A DNA stretch of 64,000 bases. It comes from Candidatus Woesearchaeota archaeon (GTDB taxonomy: Archaea > Nanobdellota > Nanobdellia > Woesearchaeales > GW2011-AR9). Positions 427 through 64,000 of this stretch are shown here, in pieces; position 1 is the first letter of the stretch, and every line of letters starts with the position of its first letter. Both the position numbers and the translations under genes were made by a program. Under the pieces are notes generated by a model, which was not told the origin of the DNA, made no database searches, and saw only the letters and a list, made by a program, of their open reading frames with translations. The DNA lies in assembly GCA_018655525.1 (NCBI GenBank), contig JABIJM010000030.1:28083-92082 (forward strand), read 5' to 3'.

Positions 427-1710
427 CTATTTCTTCTTTTTCGCATTAAATGTGAAACCAAAGATTTTAAGAGGCCGATTTTTCTTTTTATAATTCCGAT
501 AGTAGTAATAATACAATCCACCGAGTACAATTAAAATGAACACGAAGAAGCCAGTACTACTTTTTTCAATGATTCCAAATTTCTTTAATTCTGAGGTAGA
601 ATATAAGTCAAAGGTCAAATCAAACTGTTGTTGGAATGGTTTATTATTTGAATCAACATATTTTAATTTAACAGGAACATGTAGCACATCCCTTCTTTTA
701 TTCACATAAACATCAAGCTCTTCACTTTCTGTATCATCAGAATCTATATCACCAATGTAAAAATAATTTGTAGGAGAAACCAATTTATAATCTTCTGATT
801 CTTCTAAAATTAATTCTACAAATTTTACATCTGCAGTCCCTGCATTCGCAATTCCAAGTGTAATTTTTCCAGATTCACCTGATTGAAAAACCGTAGTTTT
901 CTTAATAAAAGGACGAACTTTAGGGACATCCCCCACAGAAACTGCTAAAAAGTCATCAAGAGAATATGCACTTCCTTTCTCATCATTATATGTAATGGTC
1001 ACTGGAACTTTATATAATCCAGGTGTTGCATCAGGTTTTGCAATAATCCGAAATGTTAACGCATCTTGAAAATCATTATTTAAGTTAGAGATTCTCCTTT
1101 CAGAAGAACTTTGGAATGGTGCTAATGGAATATCGTCACCATCAAAATCTAATTTGAATTTAATATCTTTTAATAAAGAATCTGCTTCATTTTTGACAAC
1201 AATCGTTACTTTAGCATCTTCTCCTGGTGCAACTTGTTCTGGTTCAGATTTAATAGAAATAATATCTAAGATTGCATCCTGTGTTTGCACATCAATTAAA
1301 AATTGATCATCAACAAATGTTACTGAATTTGTGCCTAAGTTTACTTCTACTTCTAATTCAAGATCACCTTCAACTGCATCCTCATCAACTTTCAAGGTAA
1401 AAGTAACATATTCTGCATCTGCTCCGGTAGAACTTGCACGTAATTTCCCGAGGTTTTTAGAAGCTGATTCCCCGTACATTTTAAAGGGATATTTTGGATG
1501 TAAAGTCATAATTGCATCTTTATTTGTTTCTTCAGCTTGATTCTCTATTTTAAACTTCACATCAAAAATTTGACCGGGTTCAACTGGATCAGGGGTCTGT
1601 GAAACTAATGTGACAGAGATATCTGAAACGTCTGCAACTGCCAAAGGAATTAATGACAAAAGAAAAATGCTAAGTACAACTAATAAAATTGTTTTTTTTG
1701 AAACCACCAT
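427..1710 (-). CDS. Secreted or cell-surface protein with N-terminal signal/TM, beta-sandwich (CARDB-like) repeats, C-terminal TM and a short basic tail
   Basis: N-terminal hydrophobic segment, acidic repetitive body, C-terminal FFVFILIVLGGLYYYY TM followed by a KKKNRPLK tail. It lies directly upstream of the FtsX-type permease on the same strand. Confidence 0.45.
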   Translation of the reverse strand: MVVSKKTILLVVLSIFLLSLIPLAVADVSDISVTLVSQTPDPVEPGQIFDVKFKIENQAEETNKDAIMTLHPKYPFKMYGESASKNLGKLRASSTGADAEYVTFTLKVDEDAVEGDLELEVEVNLGTNSVTFVDDQFLIDVQTQDAILDIISIKSEPEQVAPGEDAKVTIVVKNEADSLLKDIKFKLDFDGDDIPLAPFQSSSERRISNLNNDFQDALTFRIIAKPDATPGLYKVPVTITYNDEKGSAYSLDDFLAVSVGDVPKVRPFIKKTTVFQSGESGKITLGIANAGTADVKFVELILEESEDYKLVSPTNYFYIGDIDSDDTESEELDVYVNKRRDVLHVPVKLKYVDSNNKPFQQQFDLTFDLYSTSELKKFGIIEKSSTGFFVFILIVLGGLYYYYYRNYKKKNRPLKIFGFTFNAKKKK

Positions 1711-1792
1711 TTTTAAGTGTAGGAGAACTTTATAATTTATAAATGTTCTGATAAAGGTAAGATTAATAAAGGAATTTGCTTTTATTTCTTCA

Positions 1793-2602
1793 ATGGAATT
1801 TAAAGTTGAACGTAAAGGAAACGAAAATATTCATAAATATCCTACAGAAGATCTCAAGGTTGCAGAGAAATTCTCAGATGCGTTAAAGAAAGAGCTTCAT
1901 GAATTCTTAATAGGTGTTGTTGCTTTTGGAAGCAGAGCACGGCGTGAAGCAAAAGAAACAAGTGATATTGATATTCTTGTCATCATGGATGATGTTACAT
2001 TTGTAATCACAGAACCCATGGTTGAAAGTTACAAATTAATCGTAGATAATATTATTAGAAAAACATCTATGAGGTTGCATATAACATCCATGACATTAAC
2101 ATCTTTCTGGGAACATGTGAAAGTAGGTGACCCAATTACAGTTAATATTTTAAGAGATGGCGTTGCAATTATTGATCAAGGAATGTTTGATCCACTTCAA
2201 AAATTATTAAAACAAGGAAGAATCCGCCCATCTGAAGAATCAGTGTGGCGATATTACGGACGATCTCCAAAAACCTTATTAAATTCTAGATGGCATGTAT
2301 TGCAAGGTATGTTAGATCTTTATTGGGCTGTGATTGATGCAGCACATGCAGCATTAATGCGTGCGAATCAAATCCCTCCAACACCGGAACATGTCGCAGA
2401 TTTACTTGAAAAAGTCTATGTCAAACCTAAAAAATTAGAAAAAAAATACGCTGATACTATGCGTAAGTTCTACAGATTAAGTAAAGCAATTACACATAGA
2501 GAAATTAAATATGTAACAGGTTTAGAATTTGAAAAGAATTACAAAGAAGCCGATGACTTCGTTAAAAGAATGAAGAAATTAATTGAACACAATAGTCATT
2601 AA
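1793..2602 (+). CDS. Fused minimal nucleotidyltransferase (MNT) plus HEPN-like domain protein
   Basis: GSRARREAKETSDIDILVIMDD is the pol-beta-type NTase motif (GS...DxD). The C-terminal helical region (LQGMLDLYWAVIDAAHAALMRANQIP) is HEPN-like. Confidence 0.5.
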   Translation: MEFKVERKGNENIHKYPTEDLKVAEKFSDALKKELHEFLIGVVAFGSRARREAKETSDIDILVIMDDVTFVITEPMVESYKLIVDNIIRKTSMRLHITSMTLTSFWEHVKVGDPITVNILRDGVAIIDQGMFDPLQKLLKQGRIRPSEESVWRYYGRSPKTLLNSRWHVLQGMLDLYWAVIDAAHAALMRANQIPPTPEHVADLLEKVYVKPKKLEKKYADTMRKFYRLSKAITHREIKYVTGLEFEKNYKEADDFVKRMKKLIEHNSH

Positions 2603-2604
2603 AA

Positions 2605-3030
2605 ATGAGATTTCTTAAAACAATTTATAGATTATTTCAACCAGTAGACCCCATAGTTTCTAAAAATTTAAAATTGATGGAGAGTGTGGAAGAAGGAGGC
2701 CTTCAAGATTTAGTTACGCAAGAAAGTGCAGGTGGTAATGCAGGGTCATTCCAGGGAAAACTTTGCGCAGGTGCAAACTTCCATTTTGATGAAACTGGAT
2801 TAATTCATGAATTTACAAATGATCCGTCAAAAAAGTATTTTGAAGGACGATTCAAAATTAAAACTGGAATCCCATCGGATATGCGAACTGTTGATTTCGA
2901 TAATTACCGTGAACAATCTAATGAATCAAACAAAATTATCAGAACTGAATATGATTCCCCTAATGTTCCAAAAGAAGCAAAAATAATGATTGAATTAAGT
3001 GTGAAATTGTATAATGAATTACGAGAATAG
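2605..3030 (+). CDS. Hypothetical protein, translationally coupled to the MNT-HEPN gene (starts 3 nt after its stop)
   Basis: ORF with coding-like composition. No recognisable motif. Confidence 0.35.
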   Translation: MRFLKTIYRLFQPVDPIVSKNLKLMESVEEGGLQDLVTQESAGGNAGSFQGKLCAGANFHFDETGLIHEFTNDPSKKYFEGRFKIKTGIPSDMRTVDFDNYREQSNESNKIIRTEYDSPNVPKEAKIMIELSVKLYNELRE

Positions 3031-3066
3031 ATATAAAATTACTTTAAAAAAATAAGAAAGAAATTA

Positions 3067-3363
3067 TTATCCCATTAAATCTGTGAGATATTTTGGAGCC
3101 CTAAGATTTTCAATTTCTCTTGGAAGTGGCGTCTCAGTTAACGCATCATGTAAATACCCCATCATTTTTGCGTGATACATAAATTCTCCACCTTCATGAT
3201 CCAAAGGAACATCTGGAAGACAGATGGAGGGACTAATATAATCAGTATCATGTACTGTACGATTTGGTTCACGCCCACCTGAAATAGCGTCTAACCTACT
3301 TGCCACATAACTCATATCATGTACAATTTGAATCCTATGTTCTAAACTTAATACCATTTTCAA
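3067..3363 (-). CDS. Hypothetical small protein
   Basis: 98-aa ORF, His/Asp-rich (LDHEGGEFMYH). No firm family. Confidence 0.3.
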   Translation of the reverse strand: MKMVLSLEHRIQIVHDMSYVASRLDAISGGREPNRTVHDTDYISPSICLPDVPLDHEGGEFMYHAKMMGYLHDALTETPLPREIENLRAPKYLTDLMG

Positions 3364-3467
3364 CTTCTAATATTTTATTAGTATTTAAGGTGAATACAGA
3401 ATATATAAAGGTTATTAAACACAACCATCACTAGAAACATTTAAGAATCACTTCTTCTTTCTAATTC

Positions 3468-5171
3468 TTGATGAAAGACACTGTAAGAAAATTTGTTTTG
3501 AAAAATGCATTAGATTTCAAAGGAAGCGTGAATCCAAAAGCAATTTTAGGTTTAATTCTACGAAGTTCTCCAGAATTTAAAAAAGATTTTCAAAAGTTAA
3601 ACAAAGAGATTGAATCTTGTATTGCAGATATTAAAGATAAAGATCTCAAAGACATTAAAAAAGAATTAGAAAAATTAGATCCAAACCTTCTAAAAGAAAA
3701 AAAGAAAGAAGTGCCTAAAGGTCCACTTAAACCATTACGAAATGCAGAGAAAGGAAAGGTTGTTGTAAGAATTGCACCATCTCCTTCCGGTGCGTTACAT
3801 ATTGGACATGCTTATGGTTCTTCATTAAACGCATTATATGCACAAATGTATAATGGAAAATTTATTCTAAGAATTGAAGATACAAATCCTGAAAATATCT
3901 ATTCTGGTGCCTACAAACTCATAGAAGAAGATGCACAATGGTTAACAAATAACAATGTATCTCAAGTGATTATTCAATCTGAACGATTAGAAACATACTA
4001 CAAACATGCAAAAACGCTCGTTGATAAAGAAAATGCATATGTTTGCACATGCGATGCAGACACCTGGCGAGAGATGAAAAACAATGGTGAAGCGTGTGCC
4101 TGTAGAAGCTTACCAATAAAAGAACAGCAAGATCGTTATCAAAAAATGTTTAAGGGATTTGCGGAAGGTGAAGCCGTTTTACGTTTAAAAACAGATATTA
4201 AACATAAAAATCCCGCAATGCGAGATTTCGGATTAATGAGGATTAACGATCATTTGCATCCAAAAACAAAAAAAGCAAGCAGAGTGTGGCCATTGATGGT
4301 TCTTTCAGTTGCAATTGATGACCATGAACTCGGTGTAACTCATGTTCTCAATGGAAAAGATCATGCAGATAATGCAAAGAAAGAAACCATGATAATGGAA
4401 CTTCTAGGTTGGAAAGCACCTGAATATCAACATTGGGGAAGAATCAATTTTGAAGGATTTACATTAAGCACATCTAAAACAAGAATAGCAATTGAACAAA
4501 ATGAATATACAGGATGGGATGATGTACGCTTACCTTTTTTACCTGCATTACGTAAACGAGGATATCAATCAGGTGCATTCCAAAAATTCTCAAGTGAGAT
4601 TGGACTTTCACTTACTGATAAAACAGTAAGTGTAGAAGAATTCTGGAAAATGATTAATGCATTCAATAAAGATATCATTGAACCTACTTCAAACAGATAT
4701 TTCTTTGTAGAAGCACCAGTTAAAGTCACGATTAAAAATGCGCCTGAAAAAGAAGTAAAGATAGATTTACATCAAGAAGATAAAAAGCGAGGTGCACGAA
4801 CTTTACAAGGAAAAGGAAAAATTCTCATTCAGAAGAAAGACCGTAAAGATTTAGTTGAGAAAAGAACACACAGATTAATGGATTATTGCAATTTTGAAGT
4901 TAAAGGCGAAGGTGAAACGTTTTCTTCTCAAGATTATGAAGATTACAAAAATGCTGAAAACAAAGGAAAAATAATTCATTGGCTTCCAGATTCAAACGAT
5001 TTAATTAACGTAGAGATTATCATGGGAGACAATTCACGGTTACAAGGAAAAGGAGAATCTGGATTAAAAAATGTAAAAGAAGGTGACATCGTTCAATTTG
5101 AACGATTTGCCTTTGCCAGATTAGATAAAAAGGAAAAAAACAAGCTTGTATTTTGGTACTTGCATAAATAA
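3468..5171 (+). CDS. gltX: Glutamyl-tRNA synthetase, archaeal/eukaryotic type
   Basis: Class I HIGH motif (RIAPSPSGALHIGHAYG), LSTSKT (KMSKS-like), archaeal GluRS length and domain order. An AT-rich TATAAAGG box sits about 60 nt upstream. Confidence 0.85.
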   Translation: MMKDTVRKFVLKNALDFKGSVNPKAILGLILRSSPEFKKDFQKLNKEIESCIADIKDKDLKDIKKELEKLDPNLLKEKKKEVPKGPLKPLRNAEKGKVVVRIAPSPSGALHIGHAYGSSLNALYAQMYNGKFILRIEDTNPENIYSGAYKLIEEDAQWLTNNNVSQVIIQSERLETYYKHAKTLVDKENAYVCTCDADTWREMKNNGEACACRSLPIKEQQDRYQKMFKGFAEGEAVLRLKTDIKHKNPAMRDFGLMRINDHLHPKTKKASRVWPLMVLSVAIDDHELGVTHVLNGKDHADNAKKETMIMELLGWKAPEYQHWGRINFEGFTLSTSKTRIAIEQNEYTGWDDVRLPFLPALRKRGYQSGAFQKFSSEIGLSLTDKTVSVEEFWKMINAFNKDIIEPTSNRYFFVEAPVKVTIKNAPEKEVKIDLHQEDKKRGARTLQGKGKILIQKKDRKDLVEKRTHRLMDYCNFEVKGEGETFSSQDYEDYKNAENKGKIIHWLPDSNDLINVEIIMGDNSRLQGKGESGLKNVKEGDIVQFERFAFARLDKKEKNKLVFWYLHK

Positions 5172-5182
5172 GAGGGATAAAA

Positions 5183-5710
5183 ATGGGAAAAATTTCAAGA
5201 GATACGCCACTTGCAGAAATCACATTACGAAGATATGAAAAACCAACGATGAATGATCGGGATTTGGTGAGAAAATTATGTCTTTCTATTGGATTATTAC
5301 AACCGGGAGATTCACGAGATGTCGTTGTAGATGTTCTTCAAGTGTTATTACATGCGAAACAACGTCGTGAAGAATTACATTCTGAAGAAGTTAAAAATCT
5401 TGTAATGGACCATAGAAAACAAAAACAATTACCAATGTTAGGCGTTGCATCTTCAAATATAAGGCGTCAATTAAAACGACTTAAAGACCTTCATTTAATT
5501 GAAACAAATGCGAATTTGTACAGAATTAGCGAATGGAATAATATGACTGAAATCTTTGAAGAAAAAATCCACAACTTCCTTTTACAATCCGTTATTAGTA
5601 GAGTAAAAGATTACGTAGAGAAAATTGATCAAGAATTCTCTGTTGTCAAAGAAGAAGAATCCGTTAATGGTCAGAAGAATTTATTTGAAACACCTGTAAA
5701 AGAGGATTAA
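5183..5710 (+). CDS. Putative winged-helix DNA-binding protein (hypothetical)
   Basis: 175 aa. The central segment (GVASSNIRRQLKRLKDLHLIE..YRI) resembles a wHTH recognition helix plus wing. Starts 12 nt after gltX. Confidence 0.35.
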   Translation: MGKISRDTPLAEITLRRYEKPTMNDRDLVRKLCLSIGLLQPGDSRDVVVDVLQVLLHAKQRREELHSEEVKNLVMDHRKQKQLPMLGVASSNIRRQLKRLKDLHLIETNANLYRISEWNNMTEIFEEKIHNFLLQSVISRVKDYVEKIDQEFSVVKEEESVNGQKNLFETPVKED

Positions 5711-6309: not shown

Positions 6310-7098
6310 ATGTGGATTCATACACTTAACCCAGTACTTCTTAGCTTAGGACCATTAGAAATCAGATGGTATGGCATATCCTACGTTCTTGGATTTTTTC
6401 TAACTATATGGTGGATGCAATACATGCGGAAAAAGGGAGAGTTAAATCTCTCTAAAGACGAAGTATGGGATTTTGGATTCTGGATTCTTGTTGGAGTGAT
6501 TGTAGGATCACGTTTATTTGAAGTATTCTGGGAACCAGCACTTTATCTTACAAATCCACTTAATTTTCTCTATATATGGAAAGGTGGCATGAGTTTTCAT
6601 GGTGGTTTTGTAGGAACACTTGTTGCAGTGTATTGGTATTCAAGAAAGAAGCATCTTAATATCGCAAAGGTCTTTGACATTCTTGCAGTACCAACAATAT
6701 TTGCATTAGGATTAGGAAGAATCGCAAATTTTTTCAATGGAGAATTATGGGGACGCCCATTTAATGGAAATTGGTGTGTAAACTTCAAAAATACAGGAGG
6801 AGGAGATGTATGCAGGCACCCTTCAACATTATATGCAGCTGGAAAAAGATTCCTTGTGTTTGGATGGTTGTTATTCCTTGCATTAAAAAATAAGTTCAAA
6901 CCAGGTTTCATTGCATTAAATTTTGTATTTTGGGAGGGGCTAGGACGATTTATCGTTGACTTTTACAGAGATGAAAAAGTATTTTATCTTGCAAACACCT
7001 TCACAATGGGACAAATCCTTAGTGCAATTATGGTAGTTGTAGCAGGTTGGATATTGTTAAAACATTACAACGCAGAATGGAAAAAGATTTTAAAGTAA
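6310..7098 (+). CDS. lgt: Prolipoprotein diacylglyceryl transferase
   Basis: N-terminus LGPLEIRWYGISYVLGF, GGMSFHGGFVG, and the Lgt signature LGRIANFFNGELWGRP. Multi-TM, 262 aa. Confidence 0.8.
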   Translation: MWIHTLNPVLLSLGPLEIRWYGISYVLGFFLTIWWMQYMRKKGELNLSKDEVWDFGFWILVGVIVGSRLFEVFWEPALYLTNPLNFLYIWKGGMSFHGGFVGTLVAVYWYSRKKHLNIAKVFDILAVPTIFALGLGRIANFFNGELWGRPFNGNWCVNFKNTGGGDVCRHPSTLYAAGKRFLVFGWLLFLALKNKFKPGFIALNFVFWEGLGRFIVDFYRDEKVFYLANTFTMGQILSAIMVVVAGWILLKHYNAEWKKILK

Positions 7099-9715: not shown

Positions 9716-9832
9716 GCCTCTGTAGCATAGTGGCTAATGCGTCTGCCTCGTAAAATCTAGGTTTCCTTGATTTGTTCAGAAATCTTGATTTCAGACAGCA
9801 GAAGATCGGGAGTTCAAATCTCCCCAGGGGCT
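9716..9832 (+). tRNA. tRNA-Thr (anticodon CGU) with a 44-nt canonical intron (9753..9796) after position 37
   Basis: Hand-folded cloverleaf. Acceptor GCCTCTG/CAGGGGC (one G-U), U8 A9, D-arm GCAT-AGTGGCTA-ATGC, anticodon stem TCTGC/GCAGA interrupted by the intron, T-arm GGGAG-TTCAAAT-CTCCC, discriminator U. Oligo-T follows. Confidence 0.75.
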
Positions 9833-19809: not shown

Positions 19810-21066
19810 TTATAAAAATTGTGAAAGAATTCCTAATGCAAAAAGAAGAATTAATACAATTCCAAGAATTTTATGTTTGCCCATTTGGTACTCTGGTTTC
19901 CGTTCTCCAAGCCTTTTGACTTTCCAATACATCAGGATTACAAGTATCGCATCCAATCCACCAGCGAATGCACCAGTTAATCCTAATATCGCAATAAAAC
20001 TTGTAACATCAAACAACACAATAATTAAAGGAACAAGAAAAGCAAGTGCTAAAGCATATGTTCTTTTAAGATTATAATCTAAATGATACATATCAACTAA
20101 TGCTAAACCTAATGTTAAAAACGAGGTAAACATTGCAAGTACTGCAAGAAGGTTTGCAAATAATCCAAGAATAGGATTTGTATAAATGCTTAATGCAACA
20201 GTTGCGATTCTTTGATTCGCTTCAAGAAGTGAAAAATTTTGGAACCCAATAGATCCAACAACAATAAATGTGAAAATGATGTAAAGTAAGATAGGTGTTA
20301 AAGATCCGAAAATGATTGCCTTTTTCATTTTCTTTCTATCTTTATCAAAGATCTGACGAATTTCAGGAATTGCGGGCGATCCCATTAATGCAAATAAAAT
20401 CACTCCATATGGTGCAATGAAGATTCCAATATTAGAAAACAACACATTTTTGATTGATCCTAAAAATGCCATAAATCCAGATCCAAATAAAGATCCTGCA
20501 AGATTCATAAAAATAGTCGTGTCAATTCCTAAAAGGTTAGTTAATTGAATTTTATCATAGGATAATAAACCAATAATCCCTACAACAACAAATAAAAGAC
20601 TAATTAAAATTAATTCCATGGTGCCTGTAGCTTTAACTCCCCTTGAAATAATTATAAAAGTTACAACAAAGAAGATTAAAGTATAATACAAAGGTTCACC
20701 CCAACCAAAAATAGAATGTAATGTTGCACCTTCTCCAATAAGATATGCAATTAATGCACCATAGCCATTAATGAGCAAAGAAACCATCATAAAACGTTTC
20801 CCTGTTTTTCCCAAATATTTTTCTGCATAACCTGTTAATTGATGAGGTTTTTTTGTCCTTAAAACAATCTCTCCTAGAAAAAGATTTAACATCAAAAATG
20901 CAAGACCTAATACAATAATTAAAAATGAACCATAGACAAAACCAACTTGAGAGATCACAAAAGGAATTCCCAACATTCCTGCACCTACGATGGTACCAAT
21001 TAATGTTGTAATTGCCATCAAAAACTTTTTGTTAGCAAGAACTGGATTTAGTTCACCCTTTTTCAT
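19810..21066 (-). CDS. Amino-acid permease family (APC-like) transporter, about 12 TM
   Basis: 418 aa, hydrophobic throughout, with Gly-rich TM1 (GTIVGAGMLGIPF) typical of APC-family amino-acid permeases. Confidence 0.55.
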   Translation of the reverse strand: MKKGELNPVLANKKFLMAITTLIGTIVGAGMLGIPFVISQVGFVYGSFLIIVLGLAFLMLNLFLGEIVLRTKKPHQLTGYAEKYLGKTGKRFMMVSLLINGYGALIAYLIGEGATLHSIFGWGEPLYYTLIFFVVTFIIISRGVKATGTMELILISLLFVVVGIIGLLSYDKIQLTNLLGIDTTIFMNLAGSLFGSGFMAFLGSIKNVLFSNIGIFIAPYGVILFALMGSPAIPEIRQIFDKDRKKMKKAIIFGSLTPILLYIIFTFIVVGSIGFQNFSLLEANQRIATVALSIYTNPILGLFANLLAVLAMFTSFLTLGLALVDMYHLDYNLKRTYALALAFLVPLIIVLFDVTSFIAILGLTGAFAGGLDAILVILMYWKVKRLGERKPEYQMGKHKILGIVLILLFALGILSQFL

Positions 21067-21114
21067 ATACTAAAGAAGATATTTTATGTTTATATATCTG
21101 TTGGAAAAATAAGA

Positions 21115-21146
21115 GCACTCCCCACACTCGACAAGTACGGACAAGG
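21115..21146 (-). promoter_or_regulatory. Operator-like motif CCTTGTCCGTACTTGTCGAGTGTGGGGAGTGC (minus-strand reading), immediately downstream of a TTAAATA box and about 50 nt upstream of the permease start
   Basis: 26/32 identical to 63489..63520 in the same orientation relative to its gene. It contains direct CTTGT repeats spaced about 10 nt apart. Confidence 0.5.
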
Positions 21147-21159
21147 TATTTAAGTAATC

Positions 21160-21864
21160 TTGATTTTTATTTTTAAGACACTCCAATCTTTTGTATTGCG
21201 AAAAGATGAGAGGTCAACGAAAATGAAAAATAAAGAGACATTAGCTGAAATCATTGGAATAATGCTTGGAGATGGTTGTTTGTACAAAGGACACGGATCA
21301 TATCAAACAATAATTACTTCTGGAAAAAATGAAAGAGAGTGGATAATGTATGTTAAAAATTTATTTGAAAACTATTTTGAGAAAACATTTAAAATTGTTG
21401 AAATCAAGTATGGGATTCAAGCAAAATGTCATTCAAAGGAAATTTTAGAGAAATTTTTAGAGGTGGGATTATGTCATGGAAATAAAGTCCATAATAAAGT
21501 CACGATCCCACCCTGGTTATTTCTTAAGAGAAAGTATTTAATTAAAACTGTTCAAGGTTTATTTGATACAGACGGTTGTGTTTATAATAAATATGGGAAA
21601 TATGCTCAAATTGAATTTAAATTTGGTTGTGAAGAAACAACAATATCTGTTTGTAACGCCGTAAGTAATTTGGGTTTTAATACTACAAAAGTTCAAAAAC
21701 AATATAATAATGCAACAGGCAAATATAGGTGGAGATTCTACTTATGTAGACAAAAAGAGATTGATTTATTTTTTGATATAATTAAACCAAAAAATTCTAA
21801 ACATATTGAAAGATATAAAAAAATAAGAAGTGGGGATACTGGGACTTTCAAATGGAAACGTTAA
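21160..21864 (+). CDS. LAGLIDADG homing endonuclease (double-motif; probable start at ATG 21223, MKNKETLAEIIGIMLGDGCL)
   Basis: Two LAGLIDADG motifs (IIGIMLGDGCL; VQGLFDTDGCVY). Paralog of 52946..53662. Confidence 0.7.
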   Translation: MIFIFKTLQSFVLRKDERSTKMKNKETLAEIIGIMLGDGCLYKGHGSYQTIITSGKNEREWIMYVKNLFENYFEKTFKIVEIKYGIQAKCHSKEILEKFLEVGLCHGNKVHNKVTIPPWLFLKRKYLIKTVQGLFDTDGCVYNKYGKYAQIEFKFGCEETTISVCNAVSNLGFNTTKVQKQYNNATGKYRWRFYLCRQKEIDLFFDIIKPKNSKHIERYKKIRSGDTGTFKWKR

Positions 21865-24014: not shown

Positions 24015-24647
24015 CTAAGGAGCTGTACTTCCTGGGATAAGATAATTCATGGGACAACAATTATTCCTCCCCATTTTCTTAACATCATATAGACCTTTAT
24101 CCGCAGAAACAATCATTCTATTTGCCATTTCTTCACGCTCAGTAGAAGAACCCAAATCAATTTTGGGTGTAAGTTTCCCATAAGAATCAACATCTAACGT
24201 TGAAATTCCTGCACTAAAGGTTATTCCTCTCGTAACACCTTCTTTTGGATTAAAAACAACTTTCTTAAAAGCCCAATGTAATCGCTGAAATGTTGCCAAT
24301 GCATTTTCAAAGTTAGTTTCAGGCATAATAATCCCAAACTCTTCTCCCCCATATCGTGCAAAAAGGTCTGTAGCCCTAAGGTGTTTTGAATAGAAATCCG
24401 CTGCCTTTTTAATAACATAATCACCTTCCAAATGACCAAAATTATCATTGTAAGCTTTAAAATTATCAATATCCATCATTGCCAAAGATAAAGGATGTTT
24501 TGATCTATCAAATAACGCAATGTGATATTGTAATTGATCAATAAATGTTCCTTTATTTGCAACTCTCGTCATAGAATCTGTAATTGCCATAGATCTAAAC
24601 TCACTATTAATTAATGCCATTTCAACTCTTGCCAACAAAGAGTCCAT
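24015..24647 (-). CDS. GGDEF domain protein (diguanylate cyclase-like) with an intact GGEEF active site and RxxD I-site
   Basis: ITDSMTRVANKGTF, MMDIDNFKAYNDNFGHLEGD, LRATDLFARYGGEEFGIIMP, ADKGLYDVKKMGRNN. The N-terminus (LLARVEMAL) looks like the last helix of a receiver domain. Confidence 0.75.
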   Translation of the reverse strand: MDSLLARVEMALINSEFRSMAITDSMTRVANKGTFIDQLQYHIALFDRSKHPLSLAMMDIDNFKAYNDNFGHLEGDYVIKKAADFYSKHLRATDLFARYGGEEFGIIMPETNFENALATFQRLHWAFKKVVFNPKEGVTRGITFSAGISTLDVDSYGKLTPKIDLGSSTEREEMANRMIVSADKGLYDVKKMGRNNCCPMNYLIPGSTAP

Positions 24648-24649
24648 AT

Positions 24650-24940
24650 TTAGAGGTTTCTCATTAAATCTAGTCCATCACGAGGAGTTTTACCAAGATT
24701 TAAATCCATTAAAATGAGATGAGGCTCTGTTTTTTCTAAAAGTTGTTCTAATTCGGGAGCAGAAGAAGCAGTGTATAAACGTTCATATCCTGCACTTTTT
24801 AAAACCAATTCTGTAGTTCTTTGAACAGAAGGTTCGTCATCTACAATAATAATACTATAAAATGGTTTATCTTCAGGAGGAATTCTTTTTGGTCTTACCG
24901 TTGATTTTCCATTATTGTGAATGATATCCATAGCTGCCAT
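24650..24940 (-). CDS. Response-regulator receiver domain, truncated (beta1-beta3 only), immediately upstream of the GGDEF ORF
   Basis: IIIVDDEPSV acidic pocket and LILMDLNLG phospho-acceptor Asp. Stops after about 96 aa. TAA-AT-ATG junction with the GGDEF ORF. Confidence 0.6.
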   Translation of the reverse strand: MAAMDIIHNNGKSTVRPKRIPPEDKPFYSIIIVDDEPSVQRTTELVLKSAGYERLYTASSAPELEQLLEKTEPHLILMDLNLGKTPRDGLDLMRNL

Positions 24941-33925: not shown

Positions 33926-34345
33926 ATGGGTGCGTTAAATAAACTAATGTTCTGGAAGAAAGATGATGACTTTGATTTTGATAGTGCATTGAATAAAGAA
34001 ATGACTCCAAGTGACATCCCTCCAATGGATAATCTTGGTTTAGATAGCCAGCCAACAGGCTTAGAAGAAAAATCTCCTTTTGATCATCCTGCACAACCAA
34101 CTGCAACAAGACCTTTTCAACAACAAGCAGCAAGCCCTTATGCTGCTCCTCAACAGCCTCAGCAAGCTTTTCCTTCGCCAGGTCAACCTTTACAAAGACC
34201 GGGATTTCAGCAACCTCCACCGCAAAATAATGATCTCATAAGTAGTAAATTAGATACCATTAAAGCACAATTAAGTTCTATTGAACAGCGTCTTGTAAAC
34301 TTAGAAAGAGCTGCGGGCGTACAGCAACAGAAAAAGTTATGGTAA
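33926..34345 (+). CDS. Gln/Pro-rich low-complexity protein with a C-terminal coiled coil
   Basis: PQQPQQAFPSPGQPLQRPGFQQPPPQ then LDTIKAQLSSIEQRLVNLERA. Preferred over the overlapping minus-strand ORF 33924..34220. Confidence 0.35.
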   Translation: MGALNKLMFWKKDDDFDFDSALNKEMTPSDIPPMDNLGLDSQPTGLEEKSPFDHPAQPTATRPFQQQAASPYAAPQQPQQAFPSPGQPLQRPGFQQPPPQNNDLISSKLDTIKAQLSSIEQRLVNLERAAGVQQQKKLW

Positions 34346-34782
34346 ATTATAAAAAATTCTTTTGGAGTATTGTGACTTTAGTTGTAGTTTTAGATCAATT
34401 AACAAAGTATTTGATTTCTACGTTTAAACCAAACCTTGATTTGGTTCTGCTCAAAATCCATTATCTTACAAACACAGGAGCAGGATTCAGTATTCTTACG
34501 GGAAAAACGTGGATTCTAGCGATAATATCATTGATTGTGATTATAGGATTAATCTATTATTACAAAGATATTCCTAAACAAAAGACACCACAATTATTAT
34601 TTGCGTTATTTCTTGGAGGTGCAATTGGAAATTTTATTGATAGGGCACTTAGAAATTATGTCATAGATTTTATTGACTTCGGTTGGTGGCCAGCATTTAA
34701 TATTGCAGATATGGCATTGACAATCTCTGTGGTTGGATTAATTCTATATTACATTATAGAAGAAAAAAGTAACAAAAAATAA
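34339..34782 (+). CDS. lspA: Lipoprotein signal peptidase (signal peptidase II)
   Basis: NTGAGFSIL, LGGAIGNFIDRA, VIDFIDFGWWPAFNIADMALT are the LspA conserved boxes, including the catalytic Asp pair context. Confidence 0.8.
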   Translation: MVNYKKFFWSIVTLVVVLDQLTKYLISTFKPNLDLVLLKIHYLTNTGAGFSILTGKTWILAIISLIVIIGLIYYYKDIPKQKTPQLLFALFLGGAIGNFIDRALRNYVIDFIDFGWWPAFNIADMALTISVVGLILYYIIEEKSNKK

Positions 34783-40007: not shown

Positions 40008-40358
40008 ATGATCACAATATACTACAACTCAAAATGTAGCAAATGTAGACAAACGCTTGCATTATTACAAGAAAAAACAGATGAAGAGATTAATATCATT
40101 GAATATCTAAAAACGCCACCTTCAATTGAAGAACTTCAACAAATCCTACAAAAATTAAATCTAAATCCTCAAGAGATCATCAGAAAAGGTGAAGAAGAAT
40201 TTCAAGAATTTAAGGGAAAAGAATTCTCAGATAAAGAATGGATCCAGATATTACACGATCACCCAAAATTAATTCAACGACCAATTGTAATTATAAATGA
40301 GAAAGCAGTTATTGCACGACCACCAGAAAATGTGTTAAAAATATTACAACTCCCGTAA
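40008..40358 (+). CDS. ArsC/Spx-family thioredoxin-fold protein
   Basis: MITIYYNSKCSKCRQTLALL (CxxC near the N-terminus), IQRPIVIINEKAVIARP. 116 aa. Confidence 0.7.
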   Translation: MITIYYNSKCSKCRQTLALLQEKTDEEINIIEYLKTPPSIEELQQILQKLNLNPQEIIRKGEEEFQEFKGKEFSDKEWIQILHDHPKLIQRPIVIINEKAVIARPPENVLKILQLP

Positions 40359-42974
40359 CTTCTTCAAGGTATCATCAACATGTGTTTTCTTTTCCTTAAT
40401 TGCTTTTGGAGATCCACCACCATGCCATGTAAATCGTGGACGCATTTGTACAGGGAAAATACGTTCATTTGCATCATCAAAGACAACTGCTGCTCCTTTC
40501 ACACGCGGGAGATGATCTATTTCATCTACCAATCCAGTACGCATGTAACTCTGTGTTAATTGTCCTAACGCCTCTGTATCCATTTGTGCTGTTAATCTAT
40601 GAGCAAGAACCGTATCTGATTGTGTCATAACATCTGTGTGAATTTTTGCAGGTTGTTGAGTTGCAAGAATTAAACTGATTCCTGGTTGACGTCCTTCACG
40701 TAAAATTGTAATTAATGCATCTGAAGCTGCTGTTTTTCCATCATGAGGAAGAAGTTCATGTGCTTCATCAATTGCGAGCCATACTAACGGTTCTGTCATT
40801 TTTTCTTCAGTATCTTTAGAAAAATAATGCATTGCAGCATCTACAGATTTGAATTCTTCTGTCTTTCGTGCAAGCATTCTTTGATTAAACAATGTCCGAC
40901 TAATTAAACCTACAACTAACGCTTTAATTTCCCAACCAGAAGCCATAGTTGCATAAGGAGAAACATCTAAAACAGTTACTTGACCGCCTGCAACAATATC
41001 CTTCAAGGGGGTTCCTTCTTTAGAAAAAATACCCCATCCTTTTGCTTTTTGAAATTGATTTTCAACAATATTTCTTACAACTTTTTCTGAATCTTTTTCT
41101 TGAGAGATAAGAGAAATGAGTTCTTCCATATCATAAGACTCATTTTTATCTTTTAAATTTTGAACCACTTTTGAAATAAGAACACCTTCAGCAGTATTCA
41201 ATGAAATGTCAAATGCCCGACTCCAGTCTAAAGGATCAACATCAATTGGACGTATTGAAAACGGAAAATCTGTAGGGATTCCTTGTTCTTTATATTTGTA
41301 AAAGAAACCTGAAGGGGTATAAATTTTGACATCTAATGCCTTTGGATCAAATCCCCATTGTTTCACGAGATCTGAGTCTTGAAGATTAGGATATTTCATT
41401 GTCCAATAAATACCCATCGTATCCAATAAAACAATAGAAAGGTTTTGTTTGATTTCAACGGGTAAATCCGCTAAACCTTCTGCAATAGAACCCATGGTGT
41501 ATGAATTATGAACAATGATACCATTAGCAACAAAATTGTGAGTTTCAGGAACAGTAATGTCATAAACAGTTTCATTTCCTTCAATTTCTTTGATAGCCAC
41601 TATTTCATCCCAAAAAATATCTGAATTCGCAAACTTAGAAAGTAAATCAGATTCATCTGCAACAGCAATTTGTAATAATTTTTGTCGTGAAGGAGAATAT
41701 TTTGTACTTTCACGTAAAGCTTTAGGATGAGCATAACCCATCTTCCTTCCAATTGCTGCCCAATTATCTGGTTTATACATATCCCAAATTTCTTTTGGAA
41801 CAGTATCAACATTAGGGTTTCTAATAATTTTCACTGATTCTTTTAAAGCAATTACAGAACGTTCTTCTTTTTTACCATAAAAACCTATCTCCTGAAGATA
41901 CGTGTTAACATTTTCTCCATAAATCTCCAATTCATTAGCCTCAAATCCCTTTTGATTAACTTTTTTACGGATTTTAGCTACAATTCCGAAACGTAATAAT
42001 AAATGTTGTACCTGAGAAATTAATTGATCAGAAATAGAACAATAACTTACAAACCAATGATTTGCTTTTTTGTAAATTGTCCCATCGCAAGAAAACAAAC
42101 GATTTAAAAATAAACTAATTTGATGTTTTGGCATTGTAAAAATACAATCAGGAACAAATTTTGTTAAAGACCTAGTCTCATAAAGTTTAAGTTCTTCAAG
42201 CCAATTACGTATTGATGAATGATCCCATTTTGGATTGTTAATAAATTGTCCATTCTCATCTCTTGAACTTTGCTCTTTCATTACTTTTTTGATTTGGGAA
42301 ACTCTAAAGCAAGAATCATCACTGTGCCGTTCAATTCTTAAATTATCATCAAAATCATAAACTGATTGTTTAAAATCTGAAACAATTTTTTGATCTTTAT
42401 TAGAAAATAAAACAAATCTATTTCCTAAATGGCCTTCAGCAATAAGATAAGCTAAAAGTTTAACTTCACATTCCTTTATTGATAAATCACCAAAAGATTC
42501 CAATTTACGTGGTGTTGCAACTCTTGAACCTATATTCAATTTTTCTATTGGAGACCAACCCTTAACAGTTAACAATGGATGCTCCGGAGTTAATTTAATG
42601 ATTTTACCGGTTCTAAACTTAACTTCAAATATTCGATCAACCTCCCTTTTATAAAAGTGAGATTTTTGACCTTCTTGAATCTTAAAATCAGAATTTAAAG
42701 TATAAATATTTTGATTCTTTTCTTCTAAATCTTTAATTTTTACAAGAGAACCATCATCAAGTGTAATTAAAGTATCACCATGAAGACATTTTCCACTCCC
42801 TCTTTTGCCGACGATAAAGACAACATGCGCTCCTGCGACATCCATGTACACAGGATTAGAAAGAGATGTGGTTTGACCCATCTTAACATATTGTTTTCCA
42901 ATAAGAACGGTTCCTTCCTTGCCAAACTTTTCCACGTCTTTTTTGCTTCTGCCGATAATAACATCAAACACCAT
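40344..42974 (-). CDS. HerA/DUF87-type P-loop ATPase (FtsK-HerA superfamily) interrupted by an intein in the Walker A motif
   Basis: Extein: VVFIVGKRGSGK|SYTMGS (Walker A), LAIDEAHELLP (Walker B), ILATQQPAKI (DUF87 ATQRP-like). Extein total about 448 aa. Confidence 0.6.
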   Translation of the reverse strand: MVFDVIIGRSKKDVEKFGKEGTVLIGKQYVKMGQTTSLSNPVYMDVAGAHVVFIVGKRGSGKCLHGDTLITLDDGSLVKIKDLEEKNQNIYTLNSDFKIQEGQKSHFYKREVDRIFEVKFRTGKIIKLTPEHPLLTVKGWSPIEKLNIGSRVATPRKLESFGDLSIKECEVKLLAYLIAEGHLGNRFVLFSNKDQKIVSDFKQSVYDFDDNLRIERHSDDSCFRVSQIKKVMKEQSSRDENGQFINNPKWDHSSIRNWLEELKLYETRSLTKFVPDCIFTMPKHQISLFLNRLFSCDGTIYKKANHWFVSYCSISDQLISQVQHLLLRFGIVAKIRKKVNQKGFEANELEIYGENVNTYLQEIGFYGKKEERSVIALKESVKIIRNPNVDTVPKEIWDMYKPDNWAAIGRKMGYAHPKALRESTKYSPSRQKLLQIAVADESDLLSKFANSDIFWDEIVAIKEIEGNETVYDITVPETHNFVANGIIVHNSYTMGSIAEGLADLPVEIKQNLSIVLLDTMGIYWTMKYPNLQDSDLVKQWGFDPKALDVKIYTPSGFFYKYKEQGIPTDFPFSIRPIDVDPLDWSRAFDISLNTAEGVLISKVVQNLKDKNESYDMEELISLISQEKDSEKVVRNIVENQFQKAKGWGIFSKEGTPLKDIVAGGQVTVLDVSPYATMASGWEIKALVVGLISRTLFNQRMLARKTEEFKSVDAAMHYFSKDTEEKMTEPLVWLAIDEAHELLPHDGKTAASDALITILREGRQPGISLILATQQPAKIHTDVMTQSDTVLAHRLTAQMDTEALGQLTQSYMRTGLVDEIDHLPRVKGAAVVFDDANERIFPVQMRPRFTWHGGGSPKAIKEKKTHVDDTLKKLREL
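41505..42788 (-). mobile_element. Intein (428 aa) with an embedded LAGLIDADG homing-endonuclease domain
   Basis: Starts CLHGDTLITLDDG and ends IIVHN|S. Internal LLAYLIAEGHLGN and LNRLFSCDGTIY motifs. Inserted after the Lys of GKRGSGK. Confidence 0.7.
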
Positions 42975-52627: not shown

Positions 52628-52727
52628 GGGCCTGTAGCCTAGCCTGGATAGGGCGCCAGCCTTCTATATGAGAAAGCAATTCTCTGAAGGCAGCTGGATA
52701 CCGTGGGTTCGAATCCCTCCTGGCCCG
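52628..52727 (+). tRNA. tRNA-Arg (anticodon UCU) with a 25-nt intron (52667..52691) after position 37
   Basis: Acceptor GGGCCTG/CTGGCCC (one U-U), D-arm GCCT-AGCCTGGATA-GGGC, anticodon stem CCAGC/GCTGG around loop CUUCUA+A, T-arm GTGGG-TTCGAAT-CCCTC (one U-U), discriminator G. Confidence 0.55.
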
Positions 52728-52945
52728 CTCTTTCTTTTTATTTCTTGTTGAATTTAATATATTCCCAATTTATAGCAATTATTAAAGCAAAACAATATTA
52801 AAAATTCCAGATTAATTTTGATTTTGTCTAGTGCCAGAGGATTTAATCTTTAATAATTTGGGCATTTCAGCATGTTTTAACAACAAAATTCCACACTGGA
52901 CAACTACGCGTATAACTTATAAATACATTTTTCCATTTAATTCTA

Positions 52946-53662
52946 ATGAAAATGGATAAAATAAATTTATATGAGTTTATTGGAATTATGATTGGTGATG
53001 GATGTTTATTAGATTATCCTAAACATAACATTTATGGTATAGAAATAACGGGAAACGCAACTGAAGAAGTAGATTTTTATAAAAAAATAGAAGAGTTCAT
53101 TAAATCAAATTTTGATGTGAATGTAAGAGTTCATGTTCGTAAAGATAAAACGGGACAATCCTTAAAATTAATTTGTTACAGCAAAATACTAGCAAATTTT
53201 CTAAAGAAACAAGGTATAAAAAGAAATAAAACCTATTCAACACAAATTCCAAGTCATTTATTAGAATGGAAATACAGTAAATATGTGATTAAAGGAATCT
53301 TTGAAACTGATGGCTGCATTTATTTCTCTAAATCTAAAAAGATAGCTTATCCAACCTATCCGCGTCTTGAAATTTGTACAGCTAGTTTACAGTTAGCTAC
53401 TCAAATCATTAAAATTTTAAACACAAATGGATTTACCGCAAGATCATATATTAACAAAAACACGATAACTATTTATATGAGCGGTGAAAATATGCTTAAT
53501 AAGTGGTCTACAGAGATAGGCTGGAGCGGTCTAAAAAATCAAACAAAATATGACCTTTGGAAATCTTTAGGATACTACATCCCAAAAATTTCACTTCCAG
53601 AAAGATTAAAATTATTAGGCGTCGGTGGCAAAGTGGCTAATATTGACCTCATAAGTCGATAG
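52946..53662 (+). CDS. LAGLIDADG homing endonuclease (double-motif)
   Basis: FIGIMIGDGCL and IKGIFETDGCIY motifs. Paralog of 21160..21864. Its last about 14 codons overlap the 5' exon of the downstream tRNA-Cys candidate. Confidence 0.7.
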   Translation: MKMDKINLYEFIGIMIGDGCLLDYPKHNIYGIEITGNATEEVDFYKKIEEFIKSNFDVNVRVHVRKDKTGQSLKLICYSKILANFLKKQGIKRNKTYSTQIPSHLLEWKYSKYVIKGIFETDGCIYFSKSKKIAYPTYPRLEICTASLQLATQIIKILNTNGFTARSYINKNTITIYMSGENMLNKWSTEIGWSGLKNQTKYDLWKSLGYYIPKISLPERLKLLGVGGKVANIDLISR

Positions 53663-53715
53663 CAAGCAGTCCCCTGCAGAGGGACGGATCGGGGGTTCGA
53701 GTCCCTCCCGGCGCT
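53619..53715 (+). tRNA. tRNA-Cys (anticodon GCA) candidate with a 21-nt non-canonical insertion (53648..53668) between D-arm and anticodon stem
   Basis: The 3' part is unambiguous: anticodon arm GTCCC-CUGCAGA-GGGAC, variable GGATC, T-arm GGGGG-TTCGAGT-CCCTC, acceptor 3' CCGGCGC, discriminator U. The candidate 5' part GCGTCGG-TG-GCAA-AGTGGCTAATA-TTGA has a perfect acceptor match and D-loop invariants, but a weak D-stem. Confidence 0.45.
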
Positions 53716-63480: not shown

Positions 63481-63520
63481 TATAAAAGGCTTGTGGGTAC
63501 TTGTCTAGTGTGGGGTGTGG
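63481..63520 (+). promoter_or_regulatory. TATA box (TATAAAAG) followed directly by the operator-like motif GCTTGTGGGTACTTGTCTAGTGTGGGGTGTGG
   Basis: Second copy of the 21115..21146 motif in the same orientation relative to its downstream gene (start 63565). Confidence 0.5.
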
Positions 63521-63564
63521 GAAATTTCCAAAACTCTTATTAAAACCTAAATCTTACACATTAT

Positions 63565-64000
63565 ATGCAAATACATATCTCAACAAGAAAAGAATGGCGA
63601 GAATGGTTAAGAAAAAATCACAAAAAACAATCTAAAGTCGCCATTATTCTTCACAAAAAGCACACTGGAAAACCTTCTATTTCACATAAAGAATCCATGG
63701 AAGAAGCAATTTGTTTTGGATGGATTGATACGACACTTAAAAGAATTAACGAAGATACCTATCAACGAACATTTGTACGGAGAACAGATAAAAGTAAATG
63801 GAGTAGAAACACCCTTAGATATGCTCAAGAACTCATAAAGAAACGAAAAATGGCCAAAGAAGGTTTACGTAGATACAACCAAGCTAAAGATATACCTCCT
63901 TTGGATCATGATCTTCCAAAGAACCCCGAACCGTCAGAACTTATGAAAAAGATGTTAGGAAAAAATCTAAAAAAATTTCTAAAACTTCCAAAATCAACAA
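63565..64000 (+). CDS. YdeI/OmpD-associated (DUF1801-like) protein, 3'-truncated by the window end
   Basis: MQIHISTRKEWREWLRKNHKK...GWIDTTLKR pattern. No stop before 64000. Confidence 0.45.
   Translation, partial: MQIHISTRKEWREWLRKNHKKQSKVAIILHKKHTGKPSISHKESMEEAICFGWIDTTLKRINEDTYQRTFVRRTDKSKWSRNTLRYAQELIKKRKMAKEGLRRYNQAKDIPPLDHDLPKNPEPSELMKKMLGKNLKKFLKLPKST

Follow-up and report, generated by a model that had tools for sequence, protein, structure and literature searches.

Archaeal genes can be controlled from activator sites upstream of the core promoter, examples being the sites of Ptr2 in Methanocaldococcus, of GvpE in the haloarchaeal gvp genes and of TFB-RF1 in Pyrococcus. We know of no archaeal damage or recombination regulon with a defined cis-element that has been established outside the Sulfolobales (Orc1-2, TFB3), and to our knowledge hardly anything has been learned of how transcription is controlled in DPANN archaea, organisms that cannot be cultivated by themselves. 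The Orc1-2 damage element of the Sulfolobales contains 5'-ANTTTC-3' as part of a 20-bp consensus, AATAGTTTCRGWDTACTCWS, and lies at −23 to −55 from the ATG (PMC6061795), and the mycobacterial PafBC promoters are bipartite, with the form tGTCgg-N10-tA-N3-T (PMC8635444, PMC6789036). Our literature search returned nothing relevant on an archaeal motif linking radA and Hef, nor on DPANN promoter studies. Here we describe a DNA element in a 64,000-nt stretch from Candidatus Woesearchaeota (GCA_018655525.1, contig JABIJM010000030.1, positions 28,083 to 92,082), referred to below, in its full length, as the window; its GC content is 30 to 35%, and its tRNA genes presumably have introns. Read in the orientation of its putative target genes, the element is CaCACccCaCACTGGaCAAGTAC. 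It is asymmetric, about 25 bp long, and probably makes up the upstream portion of a composite promoter of archaeal type, in which it would serve as a regulator site for recombination, repair and nuclease genes on the strand opposite to that on which it was first noticed (the motif strand).

The element came to attention as two sequences said to match at 26 of 32 positions in the same reading, and this match was confirmed. Copy 1 occupies the minus strand from 21146 to 21115, where it reads CCTTGTCCGTACTTGTCGAGTGTGGGGAGTGC; TTAAATA (21153..21147) stands immediately before it, and 48 nt lie between its end and the ATG of a permease gene (21066). Copy 2 reads GCTTGTGGGTACTTGTCTAGTGTGGGGTGTGG on the plus strand (63489..63520), and the sequences flanking the two copies are unrelated. 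The string CTTGTNNGTACTTGTCNAGTGTGGGG occurs exactly twice in the window, and a search for it with up to three mismatches gave no match in 100 dinucleotide shuffles; chance would yield no match like that between copies 1 and 2. A looser scan recovered a third, weaker copy at 52914..52889 on the minus strand, which reads TATACGCGTAGTTGTCCAGTGTGGAA, lies beside a TATA box and has GTAnTTGTCnAGTGTGG in common with copies 1 and 2. The three copies, the adjacent TATA boxes with their scores in both directions and the predicted target genes are the following (BRE, B recognition element).

21115..21146, plus strand (gene orientation): copy 1, reading GCACTCCCCACACTCGACAAGTACGGACAAGG
21116..21140, plus strand: conserved core of copy 1, whose CACACTCGACA part ends at 21133, 13 nt before the TATA box
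21140..21146, plus strand: BRE-like stretch of copy 1, its last 6 to 7 nt
21147..21154, plus strand: TATA box TATTTAAG beside copy 1, 4.3 bits (plus) versus 1.2 bits (minus)
21155..21222, plus strand: predicted 5' leader of the LAGLIDADG-A gene, with the Shine-Dalgarno-like GAGAGGT at 21208..21214
21223..21864, plus strand: LAGLIDADG-A gene, 213 aa, two LAGLIDADG domains, both catalytic Asp residues conserved
63489..63520, minus strand (gene orientation): copy 2, reading CCACACCCCACACTAGACAAGTACCCACAAGC
63519..63497, minus strand: core of copy 2, whose CACACTAGACA ends at 63502, 13 nt before the TATA box
63481..63488, minus strand: predicted Hef promoter TATA box CTTTTATA, 22 nt before the Hef ATG, 8.0 versus −0.1 bits
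61266..63458, minus strand: Hef gene, 730 aa, with DEAD/Helicase_C, ERCC4 nuclease and HhH domains
52886..52908, plus strand (gene orientation): copy 3, reading AAATTCCACACTGGACAACTACG, whose CACACTGGACA ends at 52902, 13 nt before the TATA box
52916..52923, plus strand: predicted LAGLIDADG-B promoter TATA box CTTATAAA, 9.8 versus 6.1 bits
52946..53662, plus strand: LAGLIDADG-B gene, 238 aa, 30% identical to its paralog LAGLIDADG-A

LAGLIDADG-A is the predicted target of copy 1, Hef that of copy 2 and LAGLIDADG-B that of copy 3. The direction of the adjacent promoters was scored with a BRE/TATA matrix derived from the aligned 70 nt upstream of 65 long open reading frames (ORFs), 61 of which were used after the motif neighbours had been left out. 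The matrix takes the form RAAAC followed by TTTATAAA, and 22 of its 29 matches at or above 8 bits end 20 to 25 nt before an ATG, from which it follows that the mRNAs of the window are mostly leaderless. When the TATA boxes beside the motif were scored with this matrix, the direction leading away from the motif won in all eight instances (4.3 to 10.7 bits versus −0.1 to 6.1 bits). This polarity places the motif upstream of the BRE and TATA box of opposite-strand genes, and not between a TATA box and a transcription start as the original prediction had it. The copy 1 TATA box would thus be a promoter toward the LAGLIDADG gene, in the plus direction only; its ortholog in a related strain (locus L015) scores 8.0 versus 4.4 bits. 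The LAGLIDADG-B box ends 20 to 22 nt before the ATG at 52946, and the TATA-to-ATG spacing of both LAGLIDADG-B and Hef fits a leaderless mRNA; across the Hef, LAGLIDADG-B and Bro-N genes (the last found in a relative, see below), the ATG lies 20 to 24 nt past the motif-adjacent TATA box.

The two CTTGT half-sites noted earlier are present, 10 nt apart, in copies 1 and 2, yet the TATA-proximal one overlaps the BRE and is not conserved: it is replaced by TTTCTCC in L007, by CTATCC in L021 and by TATACGC in copy 3, and a two-half-site architecture is therefore not a conserved feature. Read on the other strand, this CTTGT is ACAAG, which corresponds to the A-rich BRE position of the opposite-strand promoters.

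We then aligned 19 sites from the window and from related loci in gene orientation, which gave the consensus CaCACccCaCACTGGaCA-AgTaCgg-(BRE)-TTTTAAA. Its 5' part is made up of two direct repeats of 7 nt, of the form CCCACnn, that lead into TGGACAAG. The repeats differ by clade, with CCCACAC twice in the clade of the window, CCCACTA/CCCACTG in the clade of L071 and TCACTGG twice in L072, and the sites fall into two variants, CACACTNGACA and CACTGGTCA, that track lineage and not gene family, as would be expected from a co-evolving lineage-specific factor. In 17 of the 19 sites, the element points the same way and 13 nt separate the end of its core from the 8-nt TATA window; by this geometry it abuts the BRE and, relative to the transcription start, would cover about −64 to −43. 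In 247 kb, a set that includes some loci collected by motif search, there are 15 occurrences of the composite CACTNGNCA-N11-14-TATA, compared with 0.51 ± 0.62 occurrences (maximum, 3) in 200 first-order Markov simulations. About 3 of the roughly 65 window promoters have the element. A profile of 16 sites run over 226 kb returned no further convincing site, all other matches being weak (E of at least 12). The string CACTAGACAAAA, a partial copy of the core that has no TATA box at the standard distance, lies in noncoding DNA on the motif-strand side of two copies, at 52825..52833 (minus strand) in the window and at 1056..1064 (plus strand) in L021.

Loci in relatives were collected by protein searches and by motif searches. 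An exact scan for GTACTTGTCNAGTGTGGGG over reference genomes yielded two loci in Woesearchaeota metagenome-assembled genomes (L013 and L007), and a metagenome scan for the element yielded L015 and L020 (the permease locus of a related strain), L021, L022 and duplicates of known sites. The metagenomes holding contigs with the element come from groundwater and sediment (e.g., ERZ4200979, Ga0209249 and SRR3725726). Among the loci discussed below, L071, L077 and L079 derive from GCA_030704845.1, GCA_043812455.1 and GCA_001595785.1, respectively. About 10 sites lie in loci that were found through their proteins and are free of motif-search bias. Bacterial matches from the genome and metagenome scans (Rhodococcus, Streptomyces, Clostridia and others) were rejected as chance, being GC rich or coding and devoid of the flanking features. 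A scan of viral contigs with GTANTTGTCNAGTGTGG gave 43 matches, none with a TATA box and all of them in unrelated, largely coding surroundings, and these were likewise treated as chance.

Hef orthologs from five further assemblies have the element (L067, L013 and L068 with 93%, 90% and 87% protein identity, and L069 and L071 with 70%). In each, the TATA box ends 21 to 22 nt before the conserved start MIKNFS/MIRNFS, with the element directly upstream. Between the window and L013, 21 of 26 positions of the core region, 12 of 13 of the link to the TATA box and 7 of 8 of the TATA box itself are identical, compared with 8 of 21 in the TATA-to-ATG spacer and 14 of 42 farther upstream. In the two relatives at 70% identity the core is two bases shorter, with CCCACTNGNCA where the others have CCCACACTNGACA. 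LAGLIDADG-A orthologs at 74%, 68% and 46% identity likewise keep the element at the same 13-nt spacing from the TATA box, downstream of which comes a leader that contains a Shine-Dalgarno sequence, so that four lineages, the window's included, have a LAGLIDADG-A promoter with the element.

The relatives add two further kinds of gene. In L071, the pattern ACCCACTACCCACT[A/G]G[A/T]CAACCACG precedes both Hef (ACCCACTACCCACTAGACAACCACG) and an operon encoding a small protein of about 100 aa and RadA (the near-identical ACCCACTACCCACTGGTCAACCACG), and a second, degenerate copy lies just upstream at the latter. The element also precedes the same operon in L074 and L072, which makes three lineages. 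In L007, it stands before a gene for a Bro-N domain protein, in which 24 nt separate the TATA box from the ATG. A single genome can therefore have one motif at several different repair genes, as seen for Hef and the RadA operon in L071 and for Hef and two LAGLIDADG genes in the window. The window encodes neither RadA nor its small partner protein nor Bro-N, and for this reason the link to RadA is one shown in relatives only.

The RadA operon has two further features of its own. Its leader (L071 20659..20808, L074 9588..9700 and L072 9563..9660) contains the block GTTGCGCCTCACCG-(variable hairpin)-GGTTGAAAYAAAAYGCGA with a conserved GCAAT..GGTTGC stem; it has no match in Rfam, the three sequences provide no covariation, and it may be a cis-regulatory RNA. 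The gene for the protein of about 100 aa precedes RadA in every Woesearchaeota locus examined (L071 20809..21099, L072 9661..9972 and L074 9701..9997). This protein has no Pfam family; from its sequence (FRAGSISATVW...RSYTDKEGKW) we presume a resemblance to single-strand DNA binders of the PC4/YdbC type.

Taken together, these data suggest the following model. A lineage-specific, sequence-specific DNA-binding protein would occupy the element and control the loading of TFB and TBP at the adjacent BRE and TATA box, and the outcome would be the coregulation of a small set of recombination, repair and nuclease genes. The candidate members in the window are LAGLIDADG-A, LAGLIDADG-B and Hef, to which the relatives would add the operon of the small protein and RadA and the Bro-N gene; the signal may be DNA damage or replication stress. 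Because spacing and orientation are fixed, activation of the recruitment type is slightly more likely than repression by occlusion of the BRE. The further step, that the element defines an SOS-like recombination and repair regulon of Woesearchaeota and related DPANN archaea that links Hef, RadA with its small partner and an active-looking LAGLIDADG endonuclease, is one that we put forward tentatively, as a possibility that we hold to be somewhat less probable than its opposite.

Several points weigh against this model. Five loci were collected via the motif search and are hence not independent evidence, unlike the protein-found loci, which are. The repair theme draws on few gene families (Hef, the RadA operon, LAGLIDADG and Bro-N), and the sites in L021 and L022 have no assigned target; the small ORFs of 44 and 37 aa on the motif side of L021 were uninformative. 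Other genes of DNA metabolism in the window, namely, those for a Dna2-like PD-(D/E)XK nuclease, topoisomerase VI, a Toprim primase and an intein-containing ATPase, stand without the element, and the target set must therefore be small and specific. Annotation of the 60-odd window ORFs produced no candidate binding factor, and the regulator named in the original prediction (5183..5710) had no match in Pfam. The promoter directions were derived from a sequence matrix and from TATA-to-ATG distances, the copy 1 promoter is weak (4.3 bits), and the leader of 70 nt makes the start site of LAGLIDADG-A less certain. It is also possible that the element affects the neighboring permease promoter, which is 19 nt away.

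The LAGLIDADG proteins themselves might be the readers of the element, which would then be either a homing or cleavage site of the adjacent protein or the site of a WhiA-like regulator of its own gene, Hef and RadA. Monomeric two-domain LAGLIDADG enzymes have asymmetric sites of about 22 to 26 bp, a size and asymmetry that the element shares. It adjoins LAGLIDADG genes twice in the window and again in L015, L075, L077 and L079, and LAGLIDADG-A is unusually stable for a selfish gene, remaining syntenic between the permease and RtcA genes in several lineages. Yet the element also occurs where there is no LAGLIDADG gene, at the promoters of Hef, the RadA operon and Bro-N, invariably 13 nt from the TATA box, and this fixed distance points to a role in transcription. 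Moreover, both catalytic Asp residues are invariant among 14 homologs, so the LAGLIDADG proteins look like active nucleases, and cutting several sites on their own chromosome would be harmful. In L015, the ORF at the same permease-RtcA locus (3271..3957, compared with 21223..21864 in the window) encodes a LAGLIDADG protein that is only 32% identical, whereas the element is unchanged and the flanking DNA, including the promoter and leader, is 86 to 90% identical (about 90% for the LAGLIDADG-A leader); it looks as if the nuclease gene body alone had been swapped. The invariant Asp residues and this swap argue against a LAGLIDADG protein as the reader of the element and fit nuclease genes placed under a repair-type promoter, and we consider recognition by the LAGLIDADG protein unlikely.

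A reading without any dedicated regulator, with the element as an extended core-promoter module (read by an alternative TFB or TBP paralog or through DNA shape) or as a copied promoter cassette, also seems improbable to us. The rigid spacing and orientation relative to the BRE and TATA box do resemble a basal element more than a freely placed operator, and the copies within one genome are very similar. Only about 3 of the some 65 window promoters have the element, however, and the BRE, TATA box and link vary among copies while the core is kept, which means that the copies did not arise by recent copy-and-paste. The element is conserved across orthologs with 46 to 70% protein identity, which speaks for a specific contact under selection. 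The version with an alternative TFB is, in any case, a variant of the regulator-site model and not its opposite.

The original prediction interpreted the motif as a repressor operator between a TATA box and a motif-strand transcription start (which on this reading would lie inside GTGTGGGG) that would coregulate the permease and a YdeI-like gene. Both strong window copies do have a motif-strand gene 48 to 50 nt farther on, the near-symmetric TATA boxes would allow some transcription in the motif direction, and in L077 a permease gene is again near, 52 nt from the element. The features that bear on this proposal are the neighboring genes and their own TATA boxes.

19810..21066, minus strand: Trp/Tyr-type amino acid permease gene, a neighbor of the element and not its predicted target
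21089..21096, minus strand: the permease gene's own TATA box TATATAAA, 22 nt before the ATG at 21066
63537..63545, plus strand: TATA-like box TTATTAAAA of the YdeI-like gene, 20 nt before the ATG at 63565, read from the sequence outside the matrix run

Each of the two genes thus has its own TATA box at the leaderless distance (for the permease, the promoter match AACAGATATATAAACA has 6.9 bits at a distance of 22), and the directional BRE/TATA score favors the opposite strand at all eight sites. The YdeI-like gene is cut by the window end, and its name was not confirmed by Pfam. In relatives the motif follows the opposite-strand gene, which is conserved throughout: the motif-strand gene is a different one in L013 (a DUF3050 protein gene, 175 nt away), is absent at window copy 3 and in L022 (both of which have just the 3' terminus of a convergent gene or tRNA on that side) and is separated in L075. 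In this last locus, a gene of 186 aa sets the permease apart from the element; the element remains next to the LAGLIDADG gene, and no copy accompanies the permease, an outcome that had been named beforehand as speaking against the operator. The orthologous loci largely refute the operator proposal, and we regard it as very unlikely; what survives of the proposed regulon is a motif common to several promoters, with members other than the permease and the YdeI-like gene. We retain the motif as a putative protein-binding site that acts at the DNA level and is associated with promoters.

Recognition of the element by Orc1/Cdc6 as an origin recognition box (ORB), for replication or for damage regulation in the manner of Orc1-2, is very remote. 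The TCCAGTG followed by a G-run resembles archaeal ORB elements, but these come as several copies on either side of an AT-rich unwinding region, in most cases beside orc1/cdc6. We rejected the resemblance on the arrangement of the copies, as these stand singly at 21, 53 and 63 kb, 10 to 40 kb apart, and are not clustered around such a region. A short motif does serve Orc1-2 in controlling damage-response promoters of Saccharolobus (PMC6061795), but its ANTTTC is absent from the 19-site alignment, a position needed for TCCAGTG is variable (C, G or T), and no Orc1/Cdc6 family was among the Pfam matches of the 60-odd window ORFs scanned. A structured RNA, riboswitch or small RNA was rejected, as transcribed-strand candidates showed no fold signal (z-scores of 0.04 to 0.82 versus shuffled controls), the downstream sequence differs between copies, and Rfam returned no family, its sole match being a chance miRNA at 23.5 bits versus a threshold of 88.

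Some further observations were made in the window and its relatives. An FtsK/HerA-like ATPase gene in the window (40344..42974, minus strand) has an intein and a LAGLIDADG_3 domain, and in L068 Hef itself contains such an intein (765..4514; 1249 aa versus 730 aa). Bacterial-type functions are encoded as well: a GGDEF diguanylate cyclase protein gene (24015..24940, minus strand) directly follows that of a receiver domain protein, a cyclic di-GMP pair unusual in an archaeon, and the prolipoprotein diacylglyceryl transferase Lgt (6310..7098, plus strand) and the signal peptidase II LspA (34339..34782, plus strand) represent bacterial-type lipoprotein maturation in an archaeal genome. Three tRNA genes (9716..9832, 52628..52727 and 53619..53715, plus strand) are 97 to 117 nt long and therefore presumably contain introns; the bacterial mode of ARAGORN finds only one of them. 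Two similar GC-rich hairpins, CCACAGCAAGCTGTGGGGTATG and TCGCTGCAAGCAGCGGGGTATGAAC, lie in otherwise AT-rich noncoding DNA of L007 (1130..1260) and of its duplicate L016, beside the element on the side of the motif strand. L071 has a GC-rich intergenic stretch of about 170 nt with complementary ends (20320..20490; GAGCGCCCGGAGGG...GGCGACGGGCGCTT) in a genome of about 35% GC; it looks like a structured RNA, and Rfam gave no match at an E value of 0.1 or below.

If the element works as proposed, it would predict regulon members in any Woesearchaeota genome and could be used as bait DNA for the regulator. It also hints at a partnership between a conserved free-standing LAGLIDADG nuclease and the repair machinery of the host; were the SOS-like regulon to prove real, this protein would be a domesticated repair or recombination nuclease and not a selfish homing gene. 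A more general lesson is that in mostly leaderless genomes, a motif that seems to lie after a TATA box may be upstream of a neighbor's promoter.

Among described systems, the sites of Ptr2, GvpE and TFB-RF1 offer a close parallel, as they too adjoin the BRE on its upstream side, with distance and orientation both fixed, comprise about 20 to 25 bp with direct repeats, serve few promoters of functionally related genes and can lie between divergent genes. The element differs from them in its unrelated sequence, in its repair and nuclease targets and in its uncultivated Woesearchaeota hosts, and activation is only putative here. With the operators of the repressors MDR1, LrpA and Phr, the class to which the original prediction would have assigned it, the element shares a short DNA motif immediately beside a TATA box, but those operators overlap the TATA box or the transcription start, whereas the element lies upstream of the BRE and TATA box of the promoters supported by our analysis. 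Like the Orc1-2 element (PMC6061795), it is asymmetric, lies in the promoter region and is common to a small gene set; the Orc1-2 element, however, sits closer to or overlaps the core promoter, is unrelated in sequence and has targets (ups, ced and tfb3) that differ from Hef, RadA and LAGLIDADG genes. The Pfam matches of the window ORFs linked no Orc1-type regulator to it. The PafBC promoters provide a further parallel, in that a nonpalindromic element at a fixed distance from a basal element marks a DNA damage regulon, with a regulator that is part of the initiation complex there; they are bacterial and sigma-factor based, however, and share only TGTC, which here has the opposite orientation relative to the gene, so that the resemblance is an analogy and not homology. 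An upstream promoter regulatory site is thus a kind of site that is already known; the element, as a further one of this kind, would define a candidate recombination and repair regulon in an uncultivated archaeal lineage.

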